A stretch of 20,000 nt of DNA, from the IMG/VR virus record IMGVR_UViG_3300038548_000322, one strand, 5' to 3'. Made by a program: the position numbers and the translations under genes. Positions 261-12,700 of this stretch are shown in pieces (the stretch's first letter is position 1; each line of letters opens with the position of its first letter). The stretch comes from an uncultured virus (IMG/VR IMGVR_UViG_3300038548_000322) (taxonomy: Duplodnaviria > Heunggongvirae > Uroviricota > Caudoviricetes). A model generated the notes under the pieces. It made no database searches. It worked only from the letters and a program-made list of their open reading frames with translations, and was not told the DNA's origin.

Positions 261-1265
261 TTATGCTCCCTCCGCCGCAGCCTGTTTATCGTAATCGGAA
301 TACGACTTCAGGTACTTGTTGCGGAGCACTGGATCGTCCCACACACCAGCCTCTTCCATCGCAGCACGACGGTCAGGACTGATATAAACCTCGTTCTTCC
401 TCAATGGACGTTCCCGTCCACCAGTTCGGAACTGCGGCCCGCGATTGCGAGGTTTCCCTTGTCCATTGGACTGGTCACCTGCGCCTTCGTCACCTTGGTC
501 ACCGGTTCGCGAATCGTACCGGTTGGGTAATGCTTCTGCGGAACGAGAACGTAGCTCGTCCCAATATTGTTTGGTCGTGGGATCGAATCCCTCTTGAACC
601 AGTGATCGGTCAATCTGCAACACTTTCGCAGAGTCCTGATCACGTCCAGCTGGATCCCACCAGTCGTTATCGACCATAAACTGCTGTGCGTGCGCGACAT
701 GACGCGGATCCAAATCTCTTGGCTCGACCTGTGGACGTCGCTGCGGCTGTGACAGGTAATTTTTCGCCTGTTCGAGGTCACGCATGTTGTCGCGAATAGT
801 GTCGCGGTGGTCAAGTGCCTCAGCGAGGTTCTTACCGTCGTTTGCAGCAACTGCTTGTTCAATGACTTGATTGGCAAGAGCTAAGTCGCCTCTCGCCTTG
901 GTGATACCCTGATCGATGCTGTGAATTTCACTGCCAGCGATGCGGGCGTCAGTTTCCTGCTCAAACTTACTGAAGCGTTGCTCCAGATCTGCGTTTCGAG
1001 TGCGAAGGAAGTTGAGTTCGCGATCACTGCGGTCGCGTGCTTCCTTCTGACGTTGACGACGCGTTTTGTTTTCAGAGCGACGTCGAGTCGCCTTGTCTTC
1101 GGGGTCCTCTTGGTCGCCAGCTAGACGTTCGTCTTGCGGTTCACCACCGTCGTCATCATCCTCATGCTCGCCGTCATCGACTTGACCTTCCGGTATTTCG
1201 ACGGCAACAAATTCTTCTTCGTGCTCATCGTCTTCGATTTCGACTTTTTCGTTTTCAGGGGACAT
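261..1265 (-). CDS. Putative capsid scaffolding protein
   Basis: 334 aa with a very acidic N-terminus, a central coiled coil, a Gly/Arg-rich linker and a short helical C-terminus (ISPDRRAAMEEAGVWDDP..YLKSY). AGGAGG SD. Position after portal and GroES. Confidence 0.7.
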   Translation of the reverse strand: MSPENEKVEIEDDEHEEEFVAVEIPEGQVDDGEHEDDDDGGEPQDERLAGDQEDPEDKATRRRSENKTRRQRQKEARDRSDRELNFLRTRNADLEQRFSKFEQETDARIAGSEIHSIDQGITKARGDLALANQVIEQAVAANDGKNLAEALDHRDTIRDNMRDLEQAKNYLSQPQRRPQVEPRDLDPRHVAHAQQFMVDNDWWDPAGRDQDSAKVLQIDRSLVQEGFDPTTKQYWDELRSRSAEALPNRYDSRTGDQGDEGAGDQSNGQGKPRNRGPQFRTGGRERPLRKNEVYISPDRRAAMEEAGVWDDPVLRNKYLKSYSDYDKQAAAEGA

Positions 1266-1275
1266 GCTTTACCTC

Positions 1276-1725
1276 CTACAGATAAGCGATGACGTCCATG
1301 GGATTACAGGTGATCTGACCAATGAGATCGAGATCGTTGTACAAAACAAAACAGGCCTGCTCGGCACCCGTGCGTTGACGCACTTCGTTGGAGAGATCAA
1401 CCACCCATTTGTCGCCGCCATACTTCGGCACGCGTACAAATGCACCAACCTCACACCACTCGCCTTCCGGCCAAACTTCCAGAGAGTCGCGATTCTTAAA
1501 AGCGCCGGGTCCAAGCGCGATGACTTTAGCCACTTGAGTGTTCCAGAACTCAGTGTCTTGGGTTTCATCTAGAACAATGATCCCACCTTTCGTGACCTTG
1601 CGCGGTGAACGTTTCTGAATCAAAACTCTTGAGCCAAACGGTACCAGACCGGGATCGGCCTCCGGAAATGCTTGGTCGATTGAATCGTAATCCAAAGTTA
1701 TTCGTGCGCTTGCTAACATTGTCAC
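1276..1725 (-). CDS. groES: GroES/Cpn10-like co-chaperonin
   Basis: Cpn10 motifs PFGSRVLI, mobile loop KVTKGGIIV, KVIALGPG, VGAFVRVPKYGG, NDLDLIG. Start is GTG 1725 or ATG 1719. Confidence 0.88.
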   Translation of the reverse strand: MTMLASARITLDYDSIDQAFPEADPGLVPFGSRVLIQKRSPRKVTKGGIIVLDETQDTEFWNTQVAKVIALGPGAFKNRDSLEVWPEGEWCEVGAFVRVPKYGGDKWVVDLSNEVRQRTGAEQACFVLYNDLDLIGQITCNPMDVIAYL

Positions 1726-2232: not shown

Positions 2233-4866
2233 TCAAGTATCCGTGCGTGGTCGAGGGTTCGTAGAACCTCTTCCCGACGTGATCTTCGACCGATCAGTTA
2301 CTGCCTTGACGCCTGCGATTTTAAGTGCCGTGGCATTATCCTCGGCATTGATAACCTCGCTGGAAGTGATTTTCATTTCCGTCCGCTCGTCTTCTGCACG
2401 CTCGCGCTCCACAAGCTCCTCAAGTCGAGCAGCGTACTCTTGAGCTTTCTGGGCATCGTCTTGTGCAGCTTCTAGAGCCTTCGTTCGCTCCTCGGCATCA
2501 AGCTCCATAAACGTCTTCTGCTTGTCGTGTTCACGCTGTTCGCGCTTGTCCACGAGAGTCAGTTGCGTGCGTTCGGTCTCTCTTTCGTGTCGTGCCTGAT
2601 CGGCTTCGCGTTCTTGCTCGATAGCAGCCATTGCGTTCGGATCGACCGGCGGCTGTGGCTCTTCCGGCTGGAGTTCCTGCATGGTTTGCTGCAGTTGCTC
2701 AATGACAGGTTGGATTCCAGCCAAAACTTGGTCTATCGCAGGAACCACGTCTGCAGATTGGAACGCAAGAGTTTTATCCATCTCTTTGCGCACGTCTGGA
2801 TCGCGGAGTTTCATCATCTGCGAGAACTCATCATCGTTCATTCCGCTAGCTGCTTTCAGCAGGTCAACATTGTAAGAGACGTAATAAAGCGCCACGTGTT
2901 CAATGATGTGCCCCATGAGCATGGGAATAAACCGAGGCGCAATTAACGGGTTCATTCCGAGTGCTGGTGACATCGAGTAATCGAGATGCACCTGCAAGTG
3001 GGCTAAGTGATCTTGTGATGGGAACGCAGCCACAGGTCTACCCATGGTCATCGCTGCGTTTTCGTTGACTGCGTTCTGTTCCTCAGGCGTGTCATCCGGT
3101 AAGAGCAGCTCATCAGGGTTTGGTATCTTGGTTCGTTCGAGAATGCGTTTCTCGACCGCTTTTACATTGTAAATCTCTGGCATCTGCGCAGCGCGGTCGG
3201 CAACGATCTGTAGCTGAGCCATGCGTTGAACATCGGAGAAGATCTCCGGATCTGCGACCGGCAGGACGTCATAAGGTGGATCGAAATCTTTTCGGTATGC
3301 GAGTAGCTCTCCGTACTCGTCTTTCAGCTCTTCCTCGTCGAGGTACATCCGGTTGATGCGGCATAAAATTTCGAGAACCTTGTCCATCGCTTGGAACATG
3401 CGCAGATGAATTGCGCTGAAGACAGTCATGCCCTCTTCGATCAGTGCGAGTGTCGTACCAACAGGCATGTTCGTATTTTGCTCGCCCAGCTTTTCAAAGG
3501 ATGTTTGAACAACCCCACGTCCGAGACCATCACAAATACCCAGTAGCTCAACGAGTACGTTCGACGGTGGGTTGAACGGCACCGGCATGATCAGTTTGCG
3601 GATGTCGTCGCCTGCTACACCACCTTCGATCTCGGTGATGGCGGCAACACGCAGCTCCTTGCTCTGTCCACTGAAATTAGCCCCTTTTAGTCGAATGAGT
3701 GTGGGCAGGTTATTCATATGAGCAGAGTCAAGGAGAGCGCGAAGTGCGCCAGTGGCTGCTCCAGACAGGGAACCGATCATCTGGCCGAGGCCAACTGATC
3801 CGGCACCACGCCACGGAATGAACGGGAACTCTACAGCCCAGTCCAGTTTCAGCTTGTGCTTGTTGTCCTCTTCCCAGTTGCGGTTGATTGCGCAGATCTT
3901 TTGGGAGGGACCATGAATAGTAATGCGATAAGGCGCGTAACCGAATTCGTCTTTCTTGCCTTCTGCGTTTTCAAACTCGTCGCAGTAGCAGAGGATTTCG
4001 AAGACGTTGTGCAATCCGTCCTCGTTGTACGCTTGCAGGTTTTCTTTACCCTCTACAGCGTCGGTAGCTTTTTGCGGACGGGATTCTTCTTCTACAATCC
4101 CGGCTTTGATCATTTCGGGGCCGAGGTCGGAGTACATGCCTCCTGCCACACGCTGTTTGTATTCAAACTCGGTGATGTGTTCGACGAAAGTGACGCGGTC
4201 TGATGTGTAAAAGTTCGAGGCCGCGTAGGGGATGTAAACGTCGTCAGAAGGCCAGAATTGTGGCACCGGACGTTTCTTTTGGTCATCCCAGACGAGTCGC
4301 ATATATTGCGAGCCACCCAGCGGCGTTTGTGACAAGAGCTGTTCCAGCTCCGTTCTGAAATCTGGCATCTGCTTCAAGAACTGCCAGTTCATGTAATTCT
4401 TGACGCGCTCAGCTTTCCTAAATCGATCTACCTCGGGATTGTCACCGGGGACGTACATTTTCACGGGACCGTTAGGTGGCATCAGCTCCTTGATCGCGCG
4501 TGATTGGAAATCCACCACCGCTTCAGTAAGCATGGGATGTACTGCTTTGGATGCACCTTCGAAATCGGCTCCACCGGGCGTCTCTTTGCCCAGCCCTGTA
4601 CGCTTGATCGCTTCTTCGTAATCCTTCTCCCGTTTCTCACGCGCTTTTTTATCGCGCTCGATGTCTTCCATCAGTCGGGTTGCGATTTTAGTTTTTACGC
4701 CTTCTTCGAAGTCATCCGCGATGTTGTCGAACCACTCACGGTTGGGACCTTTACCGTCGTCCTCTCCAACTGTGACGATGGCTCCTCCGTCATCGGTATC
4801 GACTACTGTGTCAGGAACCTCTGTGAATTCTTGTACGGAACCAACTTGGTCTTCGCGTGTTGCCAT
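2233..4866 (-). CDS. Portal protein (large type with C-terminal coiled-coil extension)
   Basis: 877 aa downstream of TerL. Motifs FEGASKAVHPMLTEAVVDFQSRAIKEL.P..GPVK, ALRALLDSAH..N, NMPVGTTLALIE, AFPSQDHLAHLQVH. Gln/Glu-rich helical C-terminus. TGATG coupling to the upstream gene. Confidence 0.88.
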   Translation of the reverse strand: MATREDQVGSVQEFTEVPDTVVDTDDGGAIVTVGEDDGKGPNREWFDNIADDFEEGVKTKIATRLMEDIERDKKAREKREKDYEEAIKRTGLGKETPGGADFEGASKAVHPMLTEAVVDFQSRAIKELMPPNGPVKMYVPGDNPEVDRFRKAERVKNYMNWQFLKQMPDFRTELEQLLSQTPLGGSQYMRLVWDDQKKRPVPQFWPSDDVYIPYAASNFYTSDRVTFVEHITEFEYKQRVAGGMYSDLGPEMIKAGIVEEESRPQKATDAVEGKENLQAYNEDGLHNVFEILCYCDEFENAEGKKDEFGYAPYRITIHGPSQKICAINRNWEEDNKHKLKLDWAVEFPFIPWRGAGSVGLGQMIGSLSGAATGALRALLDSAHMNNLPTLIRLKGANFSGQSKELRVAAITEIEGGVAGDDIRKLIMPVPFNPPSNVLVELLGICDGLGRGVVQTSFEKLGEQNTNMPVGTTLALIEEGMTVFSAIHLRMFQAMDKVLEILCRINRMYLDEEELKDEYGELLAYRKDFDPPYDVLPVADPEIFSDVQRMAQLQIVADRAAQMPEIYNVKAVEKRILERTKIPNPDELLLPDDTPEEQNAVNENAAMTMGRPVAAFPSQDHLAHLQVHLDYSMSPALGMNPLIAPRFIPMLMGHIIEHVALYYVSYNVDLLKAASGMNDDEFSQMMKLRDPDVRKEMDKTLAFQSADVVPAIDQVLAGIQPVIEQLQQTMQELQPEEPQPPVDPNAMAAIEQEREADQARHERETERTQLTLVDKREQREHDKQKTFMELDAEERTKALEAAQDDAQKAQEYAARLEELVERERAEDERTEMKITSSEVINAEDNATALKIAGVKAVTDRSKITSGRGSTNPRPRTDT

Positions 4867-5222
4867 CAGTTGACGCTCCCGTATTTCCCATGCATGAGAT
4901 CAGCAGCGTGCTGAACAATGTTGGCGAACGCACATACGGGGCACCCGGCGTTCTCTTCTACTACTCGGTCAGGACCGAAGATCTCCAGCGCACCCATGTT
5001 GAGCATGTTGCACGCCTCCCAGCAGGGATCTAGCTCCCCAGAGGCAAACTTGGCGTTGAGTTCATCGGATGTTGCGGCAATTTGGTCGTCGAGGCCGCGA
5101 TCTTTCAGGGCGAACATCAGCTCTGCCCAATGTCCCTCGCACCATTTGATCTGCTTCAGATCACTCGCCTCAGGGAGGGTCATGGTGGGAACGTCGAGCA
5201 AAAGAGTTTGCTTGCTACCCAT
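4866..5222 (-). CDS. Hypothetical Cys/His-containing protein between TerL and portal
   Basis: 118 aa overlapping the TerL stop and portal start. Contains WCEGHW, DPCWEAC and GCPVC. Confidence 0.75.
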   Translation of the reverse strand: MGSKQTLLLDVPTMTLPEASDLKQIKWCEGHWAELMFALKDRGLDDQIAATSDELNAKFASGELDPCWEACNMLNMGALEIFGPDRVVEENAGCPVCAFANIVQHAADLMHGKYGSVN

Positions 5223-6810
5223 AGGGATTCTCTTTCTTCTTCAACCGTCGCTCCGCAATCTCTTTCGCACGTGCACGCTCCTTGGATTCGACGGAGTCTA
5301 CCACGGTAAACGGACCAAAGAATTTATCCATGAGCAAGCGTAGACCTTGAGTAGCTGTGTCAAGCAGGTCGTCGCGCTCCGTGGAACCGGGACCGACATA
5401 CGAACAGACCTGAGAGATCAGTGGATCCGCCCAAGTCTTAAACTGTCCCGGATTTATTTCTGACTCAACTGCCCATACCCTGCCTGCCGCGAACATTGGT
5501 GAAACGTAATGAAGCCTCGTTAGTTTGTCTTCATTACCCGGATTGTAGCCGTGAGTCAAGATGTTCTCTTCCGCGAGCTGCTGACGGATGGAGATTCCGG
5601 ACGCTTTCTCTTCGATCAGAATGATGTCGGCCAGACGTCCCTGATGCTTTGCGCGCATTGCTTTCGACTTGATCAGCGGCTTAATCAGTGGCTCATCCAT
5701 GTCACCATAGGTGTACGACATCTCTTTCTTGATGCGACGCACGAGATTCGGGAAGCCCAACCAGTCCTCCCATGCGTCGAGCAGGATCACCTGCGGCAAC
5801 GGTGGCTTACCCTGTCGCGGCTGCTGGAATATTCCCCAGACACTGCACGCTGTCGGGTCACTCTCCATTTTCTTCTTGTCGTAATTGCGTTCCTTGAATG
5901 CCGGATCAATGGACATGACGATGAAGCTGAACTTCGGCAGAGGCTTGTCCTTCGGCCAAACGCGCCACTGGCTGCGCTTAACGAATCCTTCCTCTTCCGG
6001 ATCCAACACCTCACCGTGAATTTCTTGGCGACCGACACGCGTACCTTCGTATTTAGAGATGGACTCGAAGAAGTACGATGTCAGGTTGTCGCGGTTCTCG
6101 TACGTCGAACCCACCACGTCCACGGTGCGCTTATCCTTCTGCAGTCTGCGCACGAACGGTGTCGGCTTCGGCGTACCCGTTACGCACATGCGTGGGTTGT
6201 CACCAAGACGCAGCCCGAACATCATGTTGTCCCACGCTTCCTGTGGGTACTTCCACGACGCTATCTCGTCCGACCAGATAGCTGCATGCTGTGGTCCACG
6301 CAATCGCTCAGGGGTATCCCCCGCAAACCCACGAATGATCGACCCGTTCTTCAGGGTGATAGAAGGCAGGGCTTGGTTACGATCATGAATGAGCTGCGGG
6401 GGAATGACTGACATGAGCCCGGTCGGACCTTCGAAGCAGGTGTAGCGAACGTCGTCGTGCGTCGGTGAGACCACTGCGTAGAAGCTGGGGAACATCCACG
6501 CCTGTTCACCGATCCAGTTCGCACCGGTAAGCGTCTTACCAAAACCACGTCCAGATCTGATCAGCCAGATCGGCTTCTGCATGCTGAGGAATTCTTCGGG
6601 CGGGAGCTGCTTGGCTCGTGCCATCGCTTGCCAGCAGATGCGCCAGCGCAGGTAATGCAGGTCCTCCTCGGAGAACATCTGCAGGATCTCTGCAGTGTTC
6701 TCGGGGAGTTGTTCCTTTACGTCGTCGGGGAGATCATCGAAGTCGAAGTCGTAATCGAATTCGGGGGGCTGATGGACGAGCCCAAAATTTAATGCGATAA
6801 CCTGACCCAA
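5215..6810 (-). CDS. terL: Terminase large subunit
   Basis: Walker A GRGFGKT, PERLRGPQ, Walker B AIWSDE, coupling motif VTGTP, RQEIHGE, nuclease acidic residues in SIDPA, IEEKASG and DDLLD. Start uncertain (TTG 6810 with AGGAAG upstream). Confidence 0.95.
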   Translation of the reverse strand: MGQVIALNFGLVHQPPEFDYDFDFDDLPDDVKEQLPENTAEILQMFSEEDLHYLRWRICWQAMARAKQLPPEEFLSMQKPIWLIRSGRGFGKTLTGANWIGEQAWMFPSFYAVVSPTHDDVRYTCFEGPTGLMSVIPPQLIHDRNQALPSITLKNGSIIRGFAGDTPERLRGPQHAAIWSDEIASWKYPQEAWDNMMFGLRLGDNPRMCVTGTPKPTPFVRRLQKDKRTVDVVGSTYENRDNLTSYFFESISKYEGTRVGRQEIHGEVLDPEEEGFVKRSQWRVWPKDKPLPKFSFIVMSIDPAFKERNYDKKKMESDPTACSVWGIFQQPRQGKPPLPQVILLDAWEDWLGFPNLVRRIKKEMSYTYGDMDEPLIKPLIKSKAMRAKHQGRLADIILIEEKASGISIRQQLAEENILTHGYNPGNEDKLTRLHYVSPMFAAGRVWAVESEINPGQFKTWADPLISQVCSYVGPGSTERDDLLDTATQGLRLLMDKFFGPFTVVDSVESKERARAKEIAERRLKKKENPYG

Positions 6811-8286: not shown

Positions 8287-11031
8287 TTAGAATGATTGGA
8301 TCGCTCTCCACGAATGCCCAGCTGCTAAGTAAACGATGGCATTAGCTCCTACGTCTGCTTGCTTCGCTACACGAAGGGACATAGTGGTAGTCGCTTGGTT
8401 GCCGTTGATCAATACACCAATGATAGTAACGTAAACTCCATCGGGGGAGACCGAACCATCGGTGTCAATATCAACGATGTTAGTGATCACTTCACCTATA
8501 GCCGAGTGCAGCCCCGCTGATCCGGGAGTTGACCCACCACCTACCCAAGATATTGTGCCACTGAAAGTAGCGAGGGTATCAATGACTAATTCTACCCGGA
8601 GATCATCTGTTGCCGGTGCAGAATATTGGAAAGAACACTGATACACATACCTCTGATTTTCCTTGGGCTGGGAGACTAAGACTTCTGTAAAGCCGGTACC
8701 GGGGACAGAAATATTGCTGGTATTTATATCTGACTCGTTGATAGCAGCAAGAGGAATTACGATGCCGCTCCCAGTGACAACCCGAAGGCTTTGGTCAAAA
8801 GCATCATCTCTTACCCAGAATTGCATTTGACCTGACACGTCAGCTTCTTGCGCCGCTTGCTCGCGTATGAAGAGAACGCCCATGTCGTTGAGGTCGAAGC
8901 CGTCGCCATCGATAGGCGCAGTCAACGTAATCGGTTGCGTCAGACCTGCTGTCAAATCAAAGACGACTCCCGCTTCGGTGACGTAATTCAAACTGTCGTC
9001 AGCAGAATTGACCCAGAGCTGACCTTGACTTGCAATGTCCGCTTCCTGAGCGGCTTGCTCTACTAAGAACAGTGTTCCGTTGCCGACCTCGACACCGTGA
9101 TTAAGAGTCTGGAGACGAGGGACTGCGCTTGTGCCAGCATAGGCGGAGAAACCACCAGCTGCAGCATCACCACTGAAGTGACCACGAATACGACTGCCTC
9201 CGCCTGTCCCAACGCGCATGATGAGGCTTCCACCGACGATGTGATTGCGCATAATGAAGTCGGTGAAGAACTCCGTACCAAGACTGGCTCGGGTTGTTCC
9301 GTTTTGATTCTGCCATTCGACCTCGCGACCTTCACCATCGATGTTGCCGACGCTACGAATAGCCGTGATGCCGAGACCTTCTGCAACAGTCGCAGGGTTA
9401 CCTGAACCGTCTTCGAGTTGTGTCACTGCGGGTGCTGCATTCAGTACGAAGTCAACTCCGGCCTCGGTGATGTAGTGGAGCGTGTCGTCGCTAGCCTCGA
9501 CGCGCAACTGACCGTGACCGGTGATGTTTGCATTGGCTGCTGTCTGTTCCAAGTAGAGCGTGGCGTCATTGCGAATGGACACCCCATCAGCAGCGGCATC
9601 GAGGAACATCATCTCAGTGGATTCAGTACCCATGAGCCGCAGTTCACCGGAGTTGTCCATCTCGATGAATTTGAAACCAGCCTGATTCTCAAAAAACAAA
9701 CGATGGTTAGCAGTAGATAGACTGTGGCTGTCAGTAAGAGCCCAGAAAGTGGTTCCACTGTTGTCGGTAGATCGGAAAATTTCCCACTCTATTGTCGATG
9801 AACCCACACCACCCATCGCAATGAGAGTTTGAGACGTTCTAACATTAGGGAAGTTGATTGCTGCCAATGTGCCGCCAGCTGGGTCTATCACTAATTGCTT
9901 GGTCGTGTCGTCCCAAGTGAAGCTAGCGCTGCCTCCGAACGCACCAGAGTTGTTAAACTGGATGTTGGTATCCGCTCCACCGGGAGAACCAGCTGCATTC
10001 AATACGGTATCGACTCCCTGATCATCAGTGAACATCGGTTCACCATCGAGAGTGTCGCGCACCCAGAATTGACCAAAGGTTAGGACACTGGCATGAGCCG
10101 CTGCCTTCTCTTCGATCTTGATTCCGGTATCGAATCGGAAGCGGACATCCTCGGCTCCGTTGGCTGCAAACATCTCAATCTCACCCGCACCGATGCCAGT
10201 GAAAATCTGTGCACGGAGTGCGTTGTGAACCAGAACCAAAGAGGGGGCAGTGATAAGCGGACCACTAACAATTCGCACCGTGTTGCCAGCGGCTGCGTGA
10301 ATATTTAGTTGTCCGGGGGTAACAATCTCTGCGGCCCCACCACTTTTAGCGAAGGTGAGGCGAGGATTGAACTCTGTGCGCCAATCAAGCTCAATGCTGC
10401 CCGTGAGAGCAGGACTTAATACTGACATCACTGTTCCGGTCCAAAGGAACCGGTCATCACCACCGAACGCGCCAGCATCATTAAACTGAACGTTGGTATC
10501 CACGCCACCCGGAACTGCGCCACCACCGAGATCGGCAGTCGTGAGCACGCGTTCAAATCCTGCGCCGGTCGAAAGGTTGTTGATCTCGATGCCACCAGAT
10601 GCAGGCGGCACTGTGCGGAATACAGTCGTGCCAACTTCATCCATCTGGACGGAGTTCGGCCCAACCGGATCGATAGTGATTTGATCTACTGCCACGTACG
10701 TGTTCGGCGCAGTTTCGAGGTACATGATGTCCCCGACATTCCCGACCGGGAATTGGGCACCAATTGGGAGTGCCTGCAGGACCGCTACGTCAAAGCCGGA
10801 ATTGGGGCTTCCCTGTCGTTGCTGGTAGGGCTGGACGTCGTCCTGACATTGCTTGATGTCAGCAACAGCCGCGTCGAACGCAGCTTGTCCTGCTCCAGTG
10901 ACAGGACCCAGACCCGCTTTTTGAATGCGAATTGATGCATTCCAAAGCGCGTCGGAGTTATGCGGAAATTCCTCGCCGAGGTCGAGGACAATGGTTTGCA
11001 GCTCTTGTAGCTGGGTCGGGGTAAGCGACAT
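8287..11031 (-). CDS. Large repeat-containing fibre/adhesin-like virion protein
   Basis: 914 aa, Gly/Ala/Thr-rich and beta-like. Two copies of PGG.DTN.QFN..GAFGG and four ~43-aa EQAA...GQ.WV.....L...T..GV...L.A repeats. AGGAG SD. Confidence 0.65.
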   Translation of the reverse strand: MSLTPTQLQELQTIVLDLGEEFPHNSDALWNASIRIQKAGLGPVTGAGQAAFDAAVADIKQCQDDVQPYQQRQGSPNSGFDVAVLQALPIGAQFPVGNVGDIMYLETAPNTYVAVDQITIDPVGPNSVQMDEVGTTVFRTVPPASGGIEINNLSTGAGFERVLTTADLGGGAVPGGVDTNVQFNDAGAFGGDDRFLWTGTVMSVLSPALTGSIELDWRTEFNPRLTFAKSGGAAEIVTPGQLNIHAAAGNTVRIVSGPLITAPSLVLVHNALRAQIFTGIGAGEIEMFAANGAEDVRFRFDTGIKIEEKAAAHASVLTFGQFWVRDTLDGEPMFTDDQGVDTVLNAAGSPGGADTNIQFNNSGAFGGSASFTWDDTTKQLVIDPAGGTLAAINFPNVRTSQTLIAMGGVGSSTIEWEIFRSTDNSGTTFWALTDSHSLSTANHRLFFENQAGFKFIEMDNSGELRLMGTESTEMMFLDAAADGVSIRNDATLYLEQTAANANITGHGQLRVEASDDTLHYITEAGVDFVLNAAPAVTQLEDGSGNPATVAEGLGITAIRSVGNIDGEGREVEWQNQNGTTRASLGTEFFTDFIMRNHIVGGSLIMRVGTGGGSRIRGHFSGDAAAGGFSAYAGTSAVPRLQTLNHGVEVGNGTLFLVEQAAQEADIASQGQLWVNSADDSLNYVTEAGVVFDLTAGLTQPITLTAPIDGDGFDLNDMGVLFIREQAAQEADVSGQMQFWVRDDAFDQSLRVVTGSGIVIPLAAINESDINTSNISVPGTGFTEVLVSQPKENQRYVYQCSFQYSAPATDDLRVELVIDTLATFSGTISWVGGGSTPGSAGLHSAIGEVITNIVDIDTDGSVSPDGVYVTIIGVLINGNQATTTMSLRVAKQADVGANAIVYLAAGHSWRAIQSF

Positions 11032-11091: not shown

Positions 11092-11352
11092 CTAATCAGC
11101 GAACTGTCTGCTCCATTTACCGTTGCGCAGCACGTGAGGTCGGTAATGTCCATCGACCATGATCGTAGCCAGATCTCCGTCTTGCGTACCGTCGCCTCTC
11201 GTCAGGAAGTGCTCCACCTTGATGATTTCGTGTTCGTACCGCTTAACCTTGATCACTTCTTCCTCGACCCGTGGAGCTGCTGCCACACTTGCAGCGGCAG
11301 CTCCTGCGGTCATGCCGAGGCTCTTCAAAAACCCTCTGCGTGTTTTATTCAT
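11092..11352 (-). CDS. Small protein with twin-arginine (Tat) signal peptide
   Basis: 86 aa. MNKTRRGFLKSLGMTAGAAAASVAAAP matches the S/T-R-R-x-F-L-K consensus exactly, followed by an Ala-rich h-region and AxA sites. Confidence 0.78.
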   Translation of the reverse strand: MNKTRRGFLKSLGMTAGAAAASVAAAPRVEEEVIKVKRYEHEIIKVEHFLTRGDGTQDGDLATIMVDGHYRPHVLRNGKWSRQFAD

Positions 11353-11355
11353 GAC

Positions 11356-11589
11356 TTACTGAGCAATTTGCCAGTCAGTTGCCAGCAGATCCGTTTGTGA
11401 CGTTAGCCACGGTACGAGATCTCCCTGCACCGTGCGTATGTAAACGTACGGCAGTGTCATCTTGGAATGCTCATCAGGAGTCTGCAGCTCCAAATATTGA
11501 TCGGGACCATTCCACCCTTTGCGCGTGACGCGCAGACCGTTCTCCATTTGCTTAACTGCCCAGCCTATACCGTGTGCTTCGTCGTTCAC
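11356..11589 (-). CDS. tad2: DUF2829 / Tad2-like anti-Thoeris signal-sponge family protein
   Basis: 77 aa, GTG start with AAGGAG SD. Family pattern GWAVKQMENG.RV.RKGWNG..QYL...PYVYIRT.QG.LVPW..SQTDLLATDW. Confidence 0.8.
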   Translation of the reverse strand: MNDEAHGIGWAVKQMENGLRVTRKGWNGPDQYLELQTPDEHSKMTLPYVYIRTVQGDLVPWLTSQTDLLATDWQIAQ

Positions 11590-11604: not shown

Positions 11605-11811
11605 TTAACCAACAACCATTTCTGGCTCGTGTTCACCGTGACATTTCAATTTCGGGTCCGTGGGATCGTGACGCATGTAAATGCCGTCCTGATTTACCTG
11701 ACCGCAAAAACAACAGGTCTCGACCGATGCATCTATCATCGCAGTAGGCGTCCGATGTGGACACCGACCTTGCCAGCACTTGGAACAAATATTATGCGAC
11801 CAGCTGCTCAT
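11605..11811 (-). CDS. Small Cys/His-rich (Zn-binding) protein
   Basis: Likely start ATG 11811 (ATGA overlap), 68 aa. HNICSKCW and TCCFCG motifs. Confidence 0.7.
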   Translation of the reverse strand: MSSWSHNICSKCWQGRCPHRTPTAMIDASVETCCFCGQVNQDGIYMRHDPTDPKLKCHGEHEPEMVVG

Positions 11812-12029
11812 AGCGGACTTGGTGCCTGATTTCTTTTTTCGATCAGTACAAGTTGCGACGGAGGGATCCAATACTGCCCCTGATTCTCCCGGCACAAGAC
11901 ATGTTCATTGGTGACCCAGAAACCATCTTTCAAGTCGTCGATGGACCAATGTTCGTGATCGGGCGTCGGTTGCTTGCGCGGTGCGCCTGCGACCATGAAC
12001 GTGACAAAAAAGGGACCTTCAATTGACAT
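11808..12029 (-). CDS. Hypothetical protein
   Basis: Likely start ATG 12029 (MSIEGPFF; GGGAGG SD), 73 aa, overlaps both neighbours. Confidence 0.7.
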   Translation of the reverse strand: MSIEGPFFVTFMVAGAPRKQPTPDHEHWSIDDLKDGFWVTNEHVLCRENQGQYWIPPSQLVLIEKRNQAPSPL

Positions 12030-12414
12030 ACATTTCCTCCCGTGAAATTCCTTCGACGTGCAGGAATTCGGTCGTAGGATCCCACCACGTTTTGTATGCA
12101 ACCGGATGCGCTTCCGATCTGAGCGAGATACCTTTTTCGAACGCGCGATTCAAAACATTCGCGGTTACCTGCTCTCTCGTTTGCATCATACTGCGCGCCA
12201 GTGCACGTGAACGACTCTCAGCGATCTCGATGCACATTTGTTCGAGGCTTTGCTCGCTCAGATCGGCAGGGCAGAGCGCAGCGTTTTCTAACGCTTCTCT
12301 CGGGATCACGTAGTGCGCAGTGCCGTACGTCTTGTGAGTGTACTTTTCCGTCCCCGGCAGAGTAGCCGCAATGACAGCCGCGACCGTGCCCTTCAAAAAT
12401 TTACGTCTGTCCAT
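12019..12414 (-). CDS. Tat-signal protein containing major-capsid-like fragments
   Basis: 131 aa. MDRRKFLKGTVAAVIAA (Tat motif), then YTHKTYG....IPREALE, PADLSEQSLEQMCIEIA, RALARSMMQTREQVTANVLNRAF and GISLRSEAHP, which I recognise as Mu gpT-like capsid family motifs. Confidence 0.75.
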   Translation of the reverse strand: MDRRKFLKGTVAAVIAATLPGTEKYTHKTYGTAHYVIPREALENAALCPADLSEQSLEQMCIEIAESRSRALARSMMQTREQVTANVLNRAFEKGISLRSEAHPVAYKTWWDPTTEFLHVEGISREEMYVN

Positions 12415-12700
12415 TGAACATCTCGTCCGGGAAACGACCCCGATTACCTTTCTTCTTTTTTGCCTTCGGCATCGCGCTGGTATTGCAGCGTACGTGGATC
12501 ATGTTGAGGATCCACGCACGCCAGTCGTGACTATCACCTTGCCCCGGAAATTTGGGTCTACCGAGATCAGGCGAGTGTCCATAGCGAGTGCCGACGTCCT
12601 GTAGCTCCTCACGCATGAATTTCGCGATCATTTGCCGGTTCACACCTTCCCCGTTCGCCCACTGGATGATGTCGTCTGGAATTTCCACGGTAAACTTCAT
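12401..12700 (-). CDS. Hypothetical protein
   Basis: 99-aa ORF in the coupled array, with a basic C-terminal patch (KAKKKKGNRGR). Confidence 0.65.
   Translation of the reverse strand: MKFTVEIPDDIIQWANGEGVNRQMIAKFMREELQDVGTRYGHSPDLGRPKFPGQGDSHDWRAWILNMIHVRCNTSAMPKAKKKKGNRGRFPDEMFNGQT

Follow-up and report, generated by a model that had tools for sequence, protein, structure and literature searches.

The locus described here raises the question why a tailed phage should encode a small protein in which segments of a major capsid protein, joined in a changed order, follow a leader of the twin-arginine translocation (Tat) type. It is located in a stretch of 20,000 nt from an uncultured virus of the Caudoviricetes (IMG/VR record IMGVR_UViG_3300038548_000322), referred to below as the window, which is a tailed-phage piece with every gene on the minus strand. 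The open reading frame (ORF) in question, here called the mosaic ORF or mosaic gene, occupies positions 12019..12414 (-) and encodes 131 amino acids (aa) plus stop, arranged as a Tat-type leader, four capsid blocks in the order A-D-B-C and a C-terminal tail (tail E). It starts with ATG and has no in-frame start upstream. A 100% identical copy was found on a second viral contig, and the cluster of the 131-aa protein includes contigs of up to 65,897 bp.

Capsid segments in a permuted order

When the mosaic protein was used as a query in a tblastn search of 50,697 phage records, 12 records were matched, each of them at a capsid gene or at one that takes up the place of the capsid gene. Seven of the 12 matches fall under annotated capsid or head genes and five under genes labelled 'hypothetical', namely those of four Caulobacter phages and of one Alcaligenes phage noted 'Mu GpT'. 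In Caulobacter phage GB2A the matched gene, which encodes 304 aa, occupies the capsid position. BLASTP aligned residues 23-130 of the ORF with residues 79-177 of the GB2A capsid protein (E 2e-13), with a 15-residue insertion and a 6-residue deletion in the ORF. The insertion is block D, the motif of which is located about 60 residues further along in the capsids. The related capsids match the Pfam families Phage_capsid_4 (PF25209) and Mu-like_gpT (PF10124). All four blocks share homology with these HK97-fold capsids, among them that of GB2A and the 309-aa capsid of G002, a contig with a 79%-identical copy of the mosaic gene, the capsid of which was used as a proxy for that of the window phage.

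Block A (residues 24-44; 12283..12345 (-)) corresponds to capsid residues ~77-100, where the strands lead back from the E-loop, and its ratio of nonsynonymous to synonymous substitution rates (dN/dS) is 0.053. Block D (residues 49-65; 12220..12270 (-)), which has been moved ahead of block B, corresponds to capsid residues ~162-180, a helix of the A-domain, and 9-12 of its 17 residues are identical to those of 15 capsids. Block B (residues 68-92; 12139..12213 (-)) represents the spine helix (capsid ~104-133) and block C (residues 95-105; 12100..12132 (-)) the GGDGVxLxSxAHP loop after it (capsid ~137-151); the capsid linker of 6 residues between B and C is deleted in the mosaic protein. These limits are exactly those given in a preliminary description of the window, and the capsid motifs and the native order A-B-C-D that it had given were likewise confirmed by comparison with capsids. 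The modelled capsid of a relative has the HK97 fold and places block A on strands 78-92, block B on the spine helix 102-132, block C on the loop 139-152 and block D on a helix at 174-185. The P4 procapsid with Sid is among the fold matches of this model, and a PDB sequence search with the capsid profile gave nothing relevant.

Three independent checks agree that the permutation from the native order A-B-C-D to the order A-D-B-C of the 131-aa protein is real. A capsid hidden Markov model (HMM) matches the protein with a full E of 1.4e-16, with its domains out of order: HMM positions 145-181 fall on residues 31-67 (i-E 1e-7) and HMM positions 102-150 on residues 63-105 (i-E 4e-12). Such separate capsid matches in permuted order had been anticipated in the preliminary description. 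Ungapped mapping onto 15 capsids places A at 74-79 (15/15), D at 162-169 (15/15), B at 103-108 (15/15) and C at 136-140 (13/15), and for each of the four blocks the observed mapping score was reached by 0 of 100 shuffles. A capsid query matches the small gene of G002 twice, with capsid residues 146-182 upstream of capsid residues 101-135. The hhalign comparison of the 131-aa subfamily with the capsid alignment (probability 99.2%, E 7e-20) is collinear over capsid positions 76-151, the D insert excepted. All block orders seen across the family could be explained if part of a capsid gene was duplicated in tandem and then lost segments by deletion.

The mosaic protein is a partial capsid derivative, differing from the HK97-fold capsids in its A-D-B-C order, in its deleted linkers and in the addition of a leader and a novel tail. 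Only about 80 of the ~305 capsid residues are represented, and Pfam capsid families at E<=0.01 match neither the 131-aa protein nor any of 23 relatives. Tail E (residues 106-131; 12022..12099 (-)) carries the conserved pattern WWD...FLHVE.ISREEMY and is predicted to form a beta-hairpin. Its similarity to capsids does not exceed chance, 61 of 100 shuffles reaching the tail score, and in a comparison with 126 ORFs of the window and G002 it did not rise above shuffles. The four blocks of the preliminary description were confirmed as capsid-like; for these C-terminal 26 residues a capsid origin could not be detected. With 131 aa, the permuted order and a model that consists of a long helix and a hairpin, the protein does not have a complete HK97 fold. 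The predicted structure is weak (pLDDT 65.9, pTM 0.32) and comprises a leader helix, a single long helix (54-93) across D and B and the tail hairpin, block A being disordered; this model fits a protein without a compact fold. The ESM Atlas was without a usable match for the mosaic protein. Invariant or near-invariant His and acidic residues in the 131-aa protein and its 44 close homologues are H27, H34, H103, H119, D112, E121 and E126, and a metal site is conceivable from this pattern.

The leader and the protein family

The leader covers residues 1-21 (12352..12414 (-)) and consists of MDRRKFLK, an Ala-rich h-region and LPG; DRRKFLK (residues 2-8) is followed by GTVAAVIAATLPG. The h-region delimited by eye (GTVAAVIAAT, ~10-13 residues) is short, and candidate cleavage sites are located between IAA and T or between LPG and T. 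Pfam TAT_signal (PF10518) matches residues 1-20 with E 5.2e-4 and 20.3 bits. Fifteen of 23 relatives match PF10518 (best 1.8e-6), and 10 of the 23 match TIGR01409 (E<=0.01). In the alignments R3, R4 and F6 are invariant in 23/23 diverse and 44/44 close relatives, and with a dN/dS of 0.045 the leader has the lowest value within the mosaic gene. With Tat substrates (PF10518, TIGR01409) the mosaic protein shares the RRxFLK motif; by eye it also has an h-region rich in Ala and, ahead of LPG, a candidate site with small residues. It differs from them in being phage-encoded, in its very short leader and in its passenger, which is a string of virion segments and not an enzyme or cofactor protein. We take the leader of the 131-aa protein as Tat-type, and export is predicted on this basis. 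An origin of the leader as an altered capsid N-terminus was considered and rejected: the N-block HMM matched no leader.

Judged by its substitution pattern, the mosaic gene is under purifying selection: comparison with the 79%-identical copy in G002 gave a dN/dS of 0.21 at a dS of 0.66. Copies that are 66-93% identical occur on many independent contigs from several sources. The preliminary description had regarded the gene product as a repurposed capsid-derived protein and not a decaying relic, and this reading is upheld because of the low dN/dS, the many independent contigs, the conserved leader and blocks and the permuted order. It had also suggested a search of viral metagenomes for further fusions of such leaders with virion fragments, and these turned out to be numerous. 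A profile search found at least 275 clusters of relatives of 42-242 aa at E<=1e-3, and the 33 matches from a search of a representative library comprise 22 leader-bearing small proteins, six full capsids and five leaderless capsid fragments. Among 143 distinct small proteins, all carry RR within the first 25 residues and 138 have at least one capsid block at a domain E<=0.05; the remaining five came from the leader scan.

The close 131-aa homologues number 44, all with the A-D-B-C-tail layout; depending on the thresholds, this type is called as A-D-B-C, D-B-C, A-D-B or D-B. Over the 143 proteins, 17 block patterns were called, threshold-dependent patterns being counted separately. Besides the 131-aa type (44), the patterns C-B (28), B only (26), A-B (16) and C-A-B (13) are frequent, and Z-B, C-D-B, C-B-D, B-A, Z-N, Z-C-N, C-F-B, F-B and F-A-B are rarer, where Z stands for the tip of the E-loop, N for the N-terminal helix and F for capsid residues ~195-235. 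Block B, the spine helix, is present in almost all members, and the other blocks vary in identity and order. By these comparisons the family is a large set of phage proteins of 70-140 aa that retain the leader and the spine-helix block. The conservation of the spine helix resembles that in capsids, with an identical consensus at 19 of 32 columns and a Spearman coefficient of 0.50, relative to a capsid set that was picked by similarity and is therefore biased. Among the best 120 of 476 longer matches, all are ordinary capsids with PF25209; their top score is 56 bits as compared to 90-120 bits for the family, and none of the 120 has an RR motif in its first 40 residues. Two other assignments were not sustained. 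The 131-aa homologues P0038, P0041, P0048, P0049, P0058 and P0080 are named 'microcompartment protein CcmL/EutN' by JGI, for which there is no Pfam support, and the C-terminal SGEGARR...GSPDRI motif of some relatives has no HMM support as a capsid C-terminus.

All six longer contigs examined carry a normal capsid gene besides the small gene, and they hold two capsid lineages. Block B is identical at 15-22 of 25 positions between family members and at 11-15 of 25 positions to the capsid of the same phage; it is closest to that of a third, marine capsid lineage (L016 type), with 14-18 of 25 positions identical. Family members were found in 0/5 records of this lineage, only one of which is >=90% complete. 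From these identities, the blocks of the family do not follow the lineage of the resident capsid. A cultured carrier was not found among the 50,697 phage records, where three protein queries matched either capsid genes alone or nothing at all. A scan of 185,579 species genomes gave a single locus, and since this locus sits on a metagenome-assembled contig it points neither to a host nor to carriage as a prophage.

Possible functions of the mosaic protein

Since the block order is free, the model lacks a compact fold and the spine helix is conserved in a capsid-like manner, the blocks may act as displayed capsid segments. The reading that we favour, tentatively and as possible rather than probable, is that the protein imitates conserved segments of the capsid, follows the Tat route and titrates a capsid-recognizing partner, most likely a host sensor. 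The preliminary description had likewise put forward, as candidate roles, a decoy for capsid-sensing immunity that might take a bound sensor out via Tat, or a poison of capsid assembly in competing phages. The mimic would be made before or alongside the capsid protein and would bind, in the cytoplasm, a partner that normally recognizes unassembled capsid protein. This partner would most likely be a capsid-sensing defence protein of the host. The Tat leader would then take the mimic, with or without the partner, to the translocon or the periplasm, and the response to the real capsid would be blunted. Capsid protein is described as the trigger of CapRel SJ46 immunity (PMC9712102) and of Avs7 and Dsr1 (bioRxiv 10.64898/2026.01.04.697583), and a review states that Tat tolerates small unstructured hydrophilic passengers (PMC13673990). 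In the replication arm of the complete relative G007 (61 kb) the mosaic gene comes just after the primase gene, and this early or middle genome position was counted in favour of the mimic. The sole circumstantial support for a counter-defence role is a Tad2-like gene at <=0.5 kb from the mosaic gene, which is seen in the window, G002 and G006, i.e. in three of seven genomic contexts.

Several points weigh against such a mimic. In the preprint on Avs7 and Dsr1, the capsid sensors are said to read extended folded surfaces (bioRxiv 10.64898/2026.01.04.697583), and a shuffled string of segments would then not reproduce their target. A mimic that binds a sensor might also activate it. Early expression is not general, because in three relatives the mosaic gene lies between the terminase genes, and no Tad2-like gene is found near the mosaic gene in G007-G010 (4/7 contexts). 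The Tat-type signal of the preliminary description stands with regard to its RRxFLK motif and its PF10518 match, but the score of the 131-aa protein is under the PF10518 cut-off of 22.7 bits, NCBIfam TIGR01409 gives no match at E<=0.01, and the leader is short (~21 residues). The mimic reading also presupposes a host that possesses both a Tat system and capsid sensors. We regard as improbable the broader proposal that across several unrelated phage lineages Tat-led strings of a phage's own virion segments might capture a cytoplasmic sensor and, instead of inhibiting it, relocate or tether it outside the cytoplasm by export of the hitchhiker type.

Other functions can be envisaged for a protein of this composition. 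Tail E, which is conserved and not capsid-like, and several conserved His residues would fit a periplasmic small protein in which a capsid fragment was captured behind an existing Tat leader and now serves an unrelated envelope job such as lysis timing, exclusion or metal binding; so would the non-capsid leader proteins of 86 aa, 194-201 aa and 113 aa with similar leaders that are encoded by the same phages. Nevertheless, family members retain near-consensus capsid motifs, two gene types recruit different capsid parts (spine helix, strand and loop as compared to E-loop tip and N-terminal helix), and the conservation of the spine helix matches that of capsids even in members without the packing partners of this helix, so that we consider such an exaptation unlikely. 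The displayed interface segments might instead be directed against competitors, capping or capturing capsid subunits of a rival lineage and removing them via Tat, whereas the capsid of the phage itself, being diverged, would escape. Tat is known to export partners that have no signal of their own together with a substrate, and such a weapon would agree with a block B that is nearer to the foreign L016-type capsid (14-18/25) than to the resident one (11-15/25) and with the lack of a family member in the five L016-type records, one of them >=90% complete. It is unlikely nonetheless: the differences in identity are small and based on 25 columns, capsids assemble in the cytoplasm whereas the leader points outward, and competition of a segment string with intramolecular folding is an assumption.

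The periplasmic location of the mature protein that the leader predicts would also suit a detector or blocker of superinfecting kin, in which the exported segments bind head-interior proteins ejected into the periplasm at infection and thereby exclude or signal the newcomer. Virulent phages make periplasm-facing exclusion and lysis-inhibition proteins, e.g. T4 RI, and G007 encodes a DNA-ejection-type protein. This explanation is purely conceptual, however, and in capsids of the HK97 type the E-loop belongs to the outer elements; we judge it distinctly unlikely. Very improbable, in our view, is a passenger that is carried into the head by its capsid pieces, injected with the DNA and directed by its leader to the envelope of the next host. 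The gene does lie in or beside the packaging/head operon in three relatives, but it is found in the replication arm of G007, and the N-terminal leader would be exposed, so that packaging would have to compete with export from the cell that makes the protein. Finally, a functionless decaying fragment, a chance chimera or an assembly artefact is hardly credible. The ORF is short and overlaps both neighbours, and truncated leaderless capsid ORFs do occur in metagenomes (5/33 matches); against this stand the dN/dS of 0.21 at a dS of 0.66, the many independent contigs, from several sources, that carry an identical or a 66-93%-identical copy, and the invariance of the leader across the family.

As regards known systems, in capsid-triggered immunity (CapRel SJ46, Avs7, Dsr1, Lit) the capsid is read by the host, which is the premise of the decoy reading; these proteins are host sensors, whereas the mosaic protein is phage-encoded. 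In the case of Lit, what is sensed is a short linear stretch of capsid protein, namely the Gol peptide of T4 gp23. Counter-defence by mimicry or sequestration (the Tad2 sponge, Ocr) likewise relies on small, often clustered accessory genes. Such proteins mimic DNA, as Ocr does, or soak up signalling nucleotides, and none is known to originate from a virion protein of the phage itself or to have an export leader. The satellite capsid redirectors (P4 Sid, SaPI CpmA/B, PLE TcaP) are small proteins acting on the HK97-fold assembly of another element. Unlike the mosaic protein, these redirectors are satellite-encoded and are not known to derive from a capsid or to have an export leader. In a literature search, mostly of abstracts, we could not find a description of a phage protein family made of a leader and shuffled capsid segments, nor a phage-encoded capsid decoy, in line with the statement of the preliminary description that no such system was known to it.

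If the mimic reading were true, virion proteins would be the raw material for small exported mimics, which would form a new class of phage accessory genes with hundreds of metagenome clusters, and capsid-sensing immunity, phage counter-defence and Tat transport would be linked. Even if it fails, the selected capsid segments with their variable order and the clustering of leader-bearing families in these genomes have to be explained. The family also illustrates how circularly permuted and segment-swapped proteins can originate from a structural gene.

Genomic setting and further leader-bearing genes

The mosaic ORF overlaps both of its neighbours, as had been noted before. The 3' end of an upstream gene of 99 aa (12401..12700 (-)), which is without a family match, overlaps its start by 14 nt, and a downstream small gene (11808..12029 (-)) with its ATG at 12029 overlaps its 3' end by 11 nt. 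The Tad2-like gene (11356-11589 (-); Pfam Tad2-like, E 9.5e-23) is located 430 bp downstream of the mosaic ORF, at the distance given in the preliminary description. Further Tad2-like (anti-Thoeris) genes adjoining the mosaic gene are found at L013:17206-17424 and L089:4820-5281, and in G006 the Tad2-like domain makes up the C-terminal half of a protein of 154 aa.

The large terminase gene (5215-6810 (-)) is followed by the portal gene (2233-4866 (-)) and, immediately after the portal gene as in annotated relatives, by a Cpn10/GroES-like gene (1276-1725 (-); Pfam E 3e-7, above cut-off). This match confirms the earlier assignment of the phage to a 'portal-GroES-scaffold' type. ORFs of 99 aa and 72 aa that overlap the Cpn10/GroES-like gene in other frames are probably not genes. 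A gene of 334 aa (261-1265 (-)) occupies the scaffold position. The statement that the mosaic gene is far from the head genes is only partly true: in the window the large terminase gene follows 5.2 kb downstream of it, and in some relatives it abuts the terminase gene. A distance of a few kb separates it from the terminase gene downstream in the window as well as in G002 and G006, and in G008-G010 it is situated between the small and large terminase genes, abutting the large one in G008 and G010. Genes for fn3 or Ig-like proteins and further leader-bearing genes share this terminase-region stretch in G008-G010. An integrase was not seen among 70 ORFs of G007 at E<=1e-5.

Because additional leader-bearing proteins are encoded in the same stretches, these phages possess several families with similar leaders, and the leaders of the different families resemble one another. 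A second gene of the window, at 11092..11352 (-), encodes an 86-aa protein that likewise has a twin-arginine leader (TRRGFLK). It belongs to a separate conserved family with 44 homologue clusters at 54-91% identity, in which R5, R6, F8 and L9 are invariant and His, Asp and Gly are conserved in the mature part. The profile of this family matches other leader-bearing ORFs via the leader alone, and its origin as a capsid derivative was rejected (hhalign E 0.11, probability 0.5%). In a second mosaic type, which lacks the spine helix, the leader is followed by the post-helix loop, an LLHDAAHHD motif, the tip of the E-loop and the N-terminal helix of the capsid, the last two being separated in some cases by the helix of the A-domain. 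This type is found at L085:1291-1674 (G010), L062:4250-4531, L006:1124-1483 and L086:8153-8512 (G008), and in L006 and L062 it overlaps or abuts a gene of the spine-helix type. Other leader-bearing proteins of 194-201 aa (L090:5339-5920 and L062:1889-2491) and of 113 aa (L090:9480-9818) have no detectable similarity to large ORFs of their contigs. His-rich motifs are also present in two other leader families.

Parts of the stretch are contained in 24 sequencing runs, all labelled as marine sediment, marine or subsurface metagenome, and no RNA runs are listed among them. Around the terminase gene of relatives, proteins of the plasmid fertility inhibition factor (PFIN) type are encoded at L090:10075-10491 (E 5.8e-7) and L087:9131-9610 (E 5.5e-4, below cut-off). 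Between the accessory genes and the terminase gene of the window, an ORF of 914 aa (8287-11031 (-)) gave no Pfam or PHROG match. By eye a QFN..GAFGG motif recurs within it, and its counterparts have 809 aa in G006 and 1045 aa in G002.

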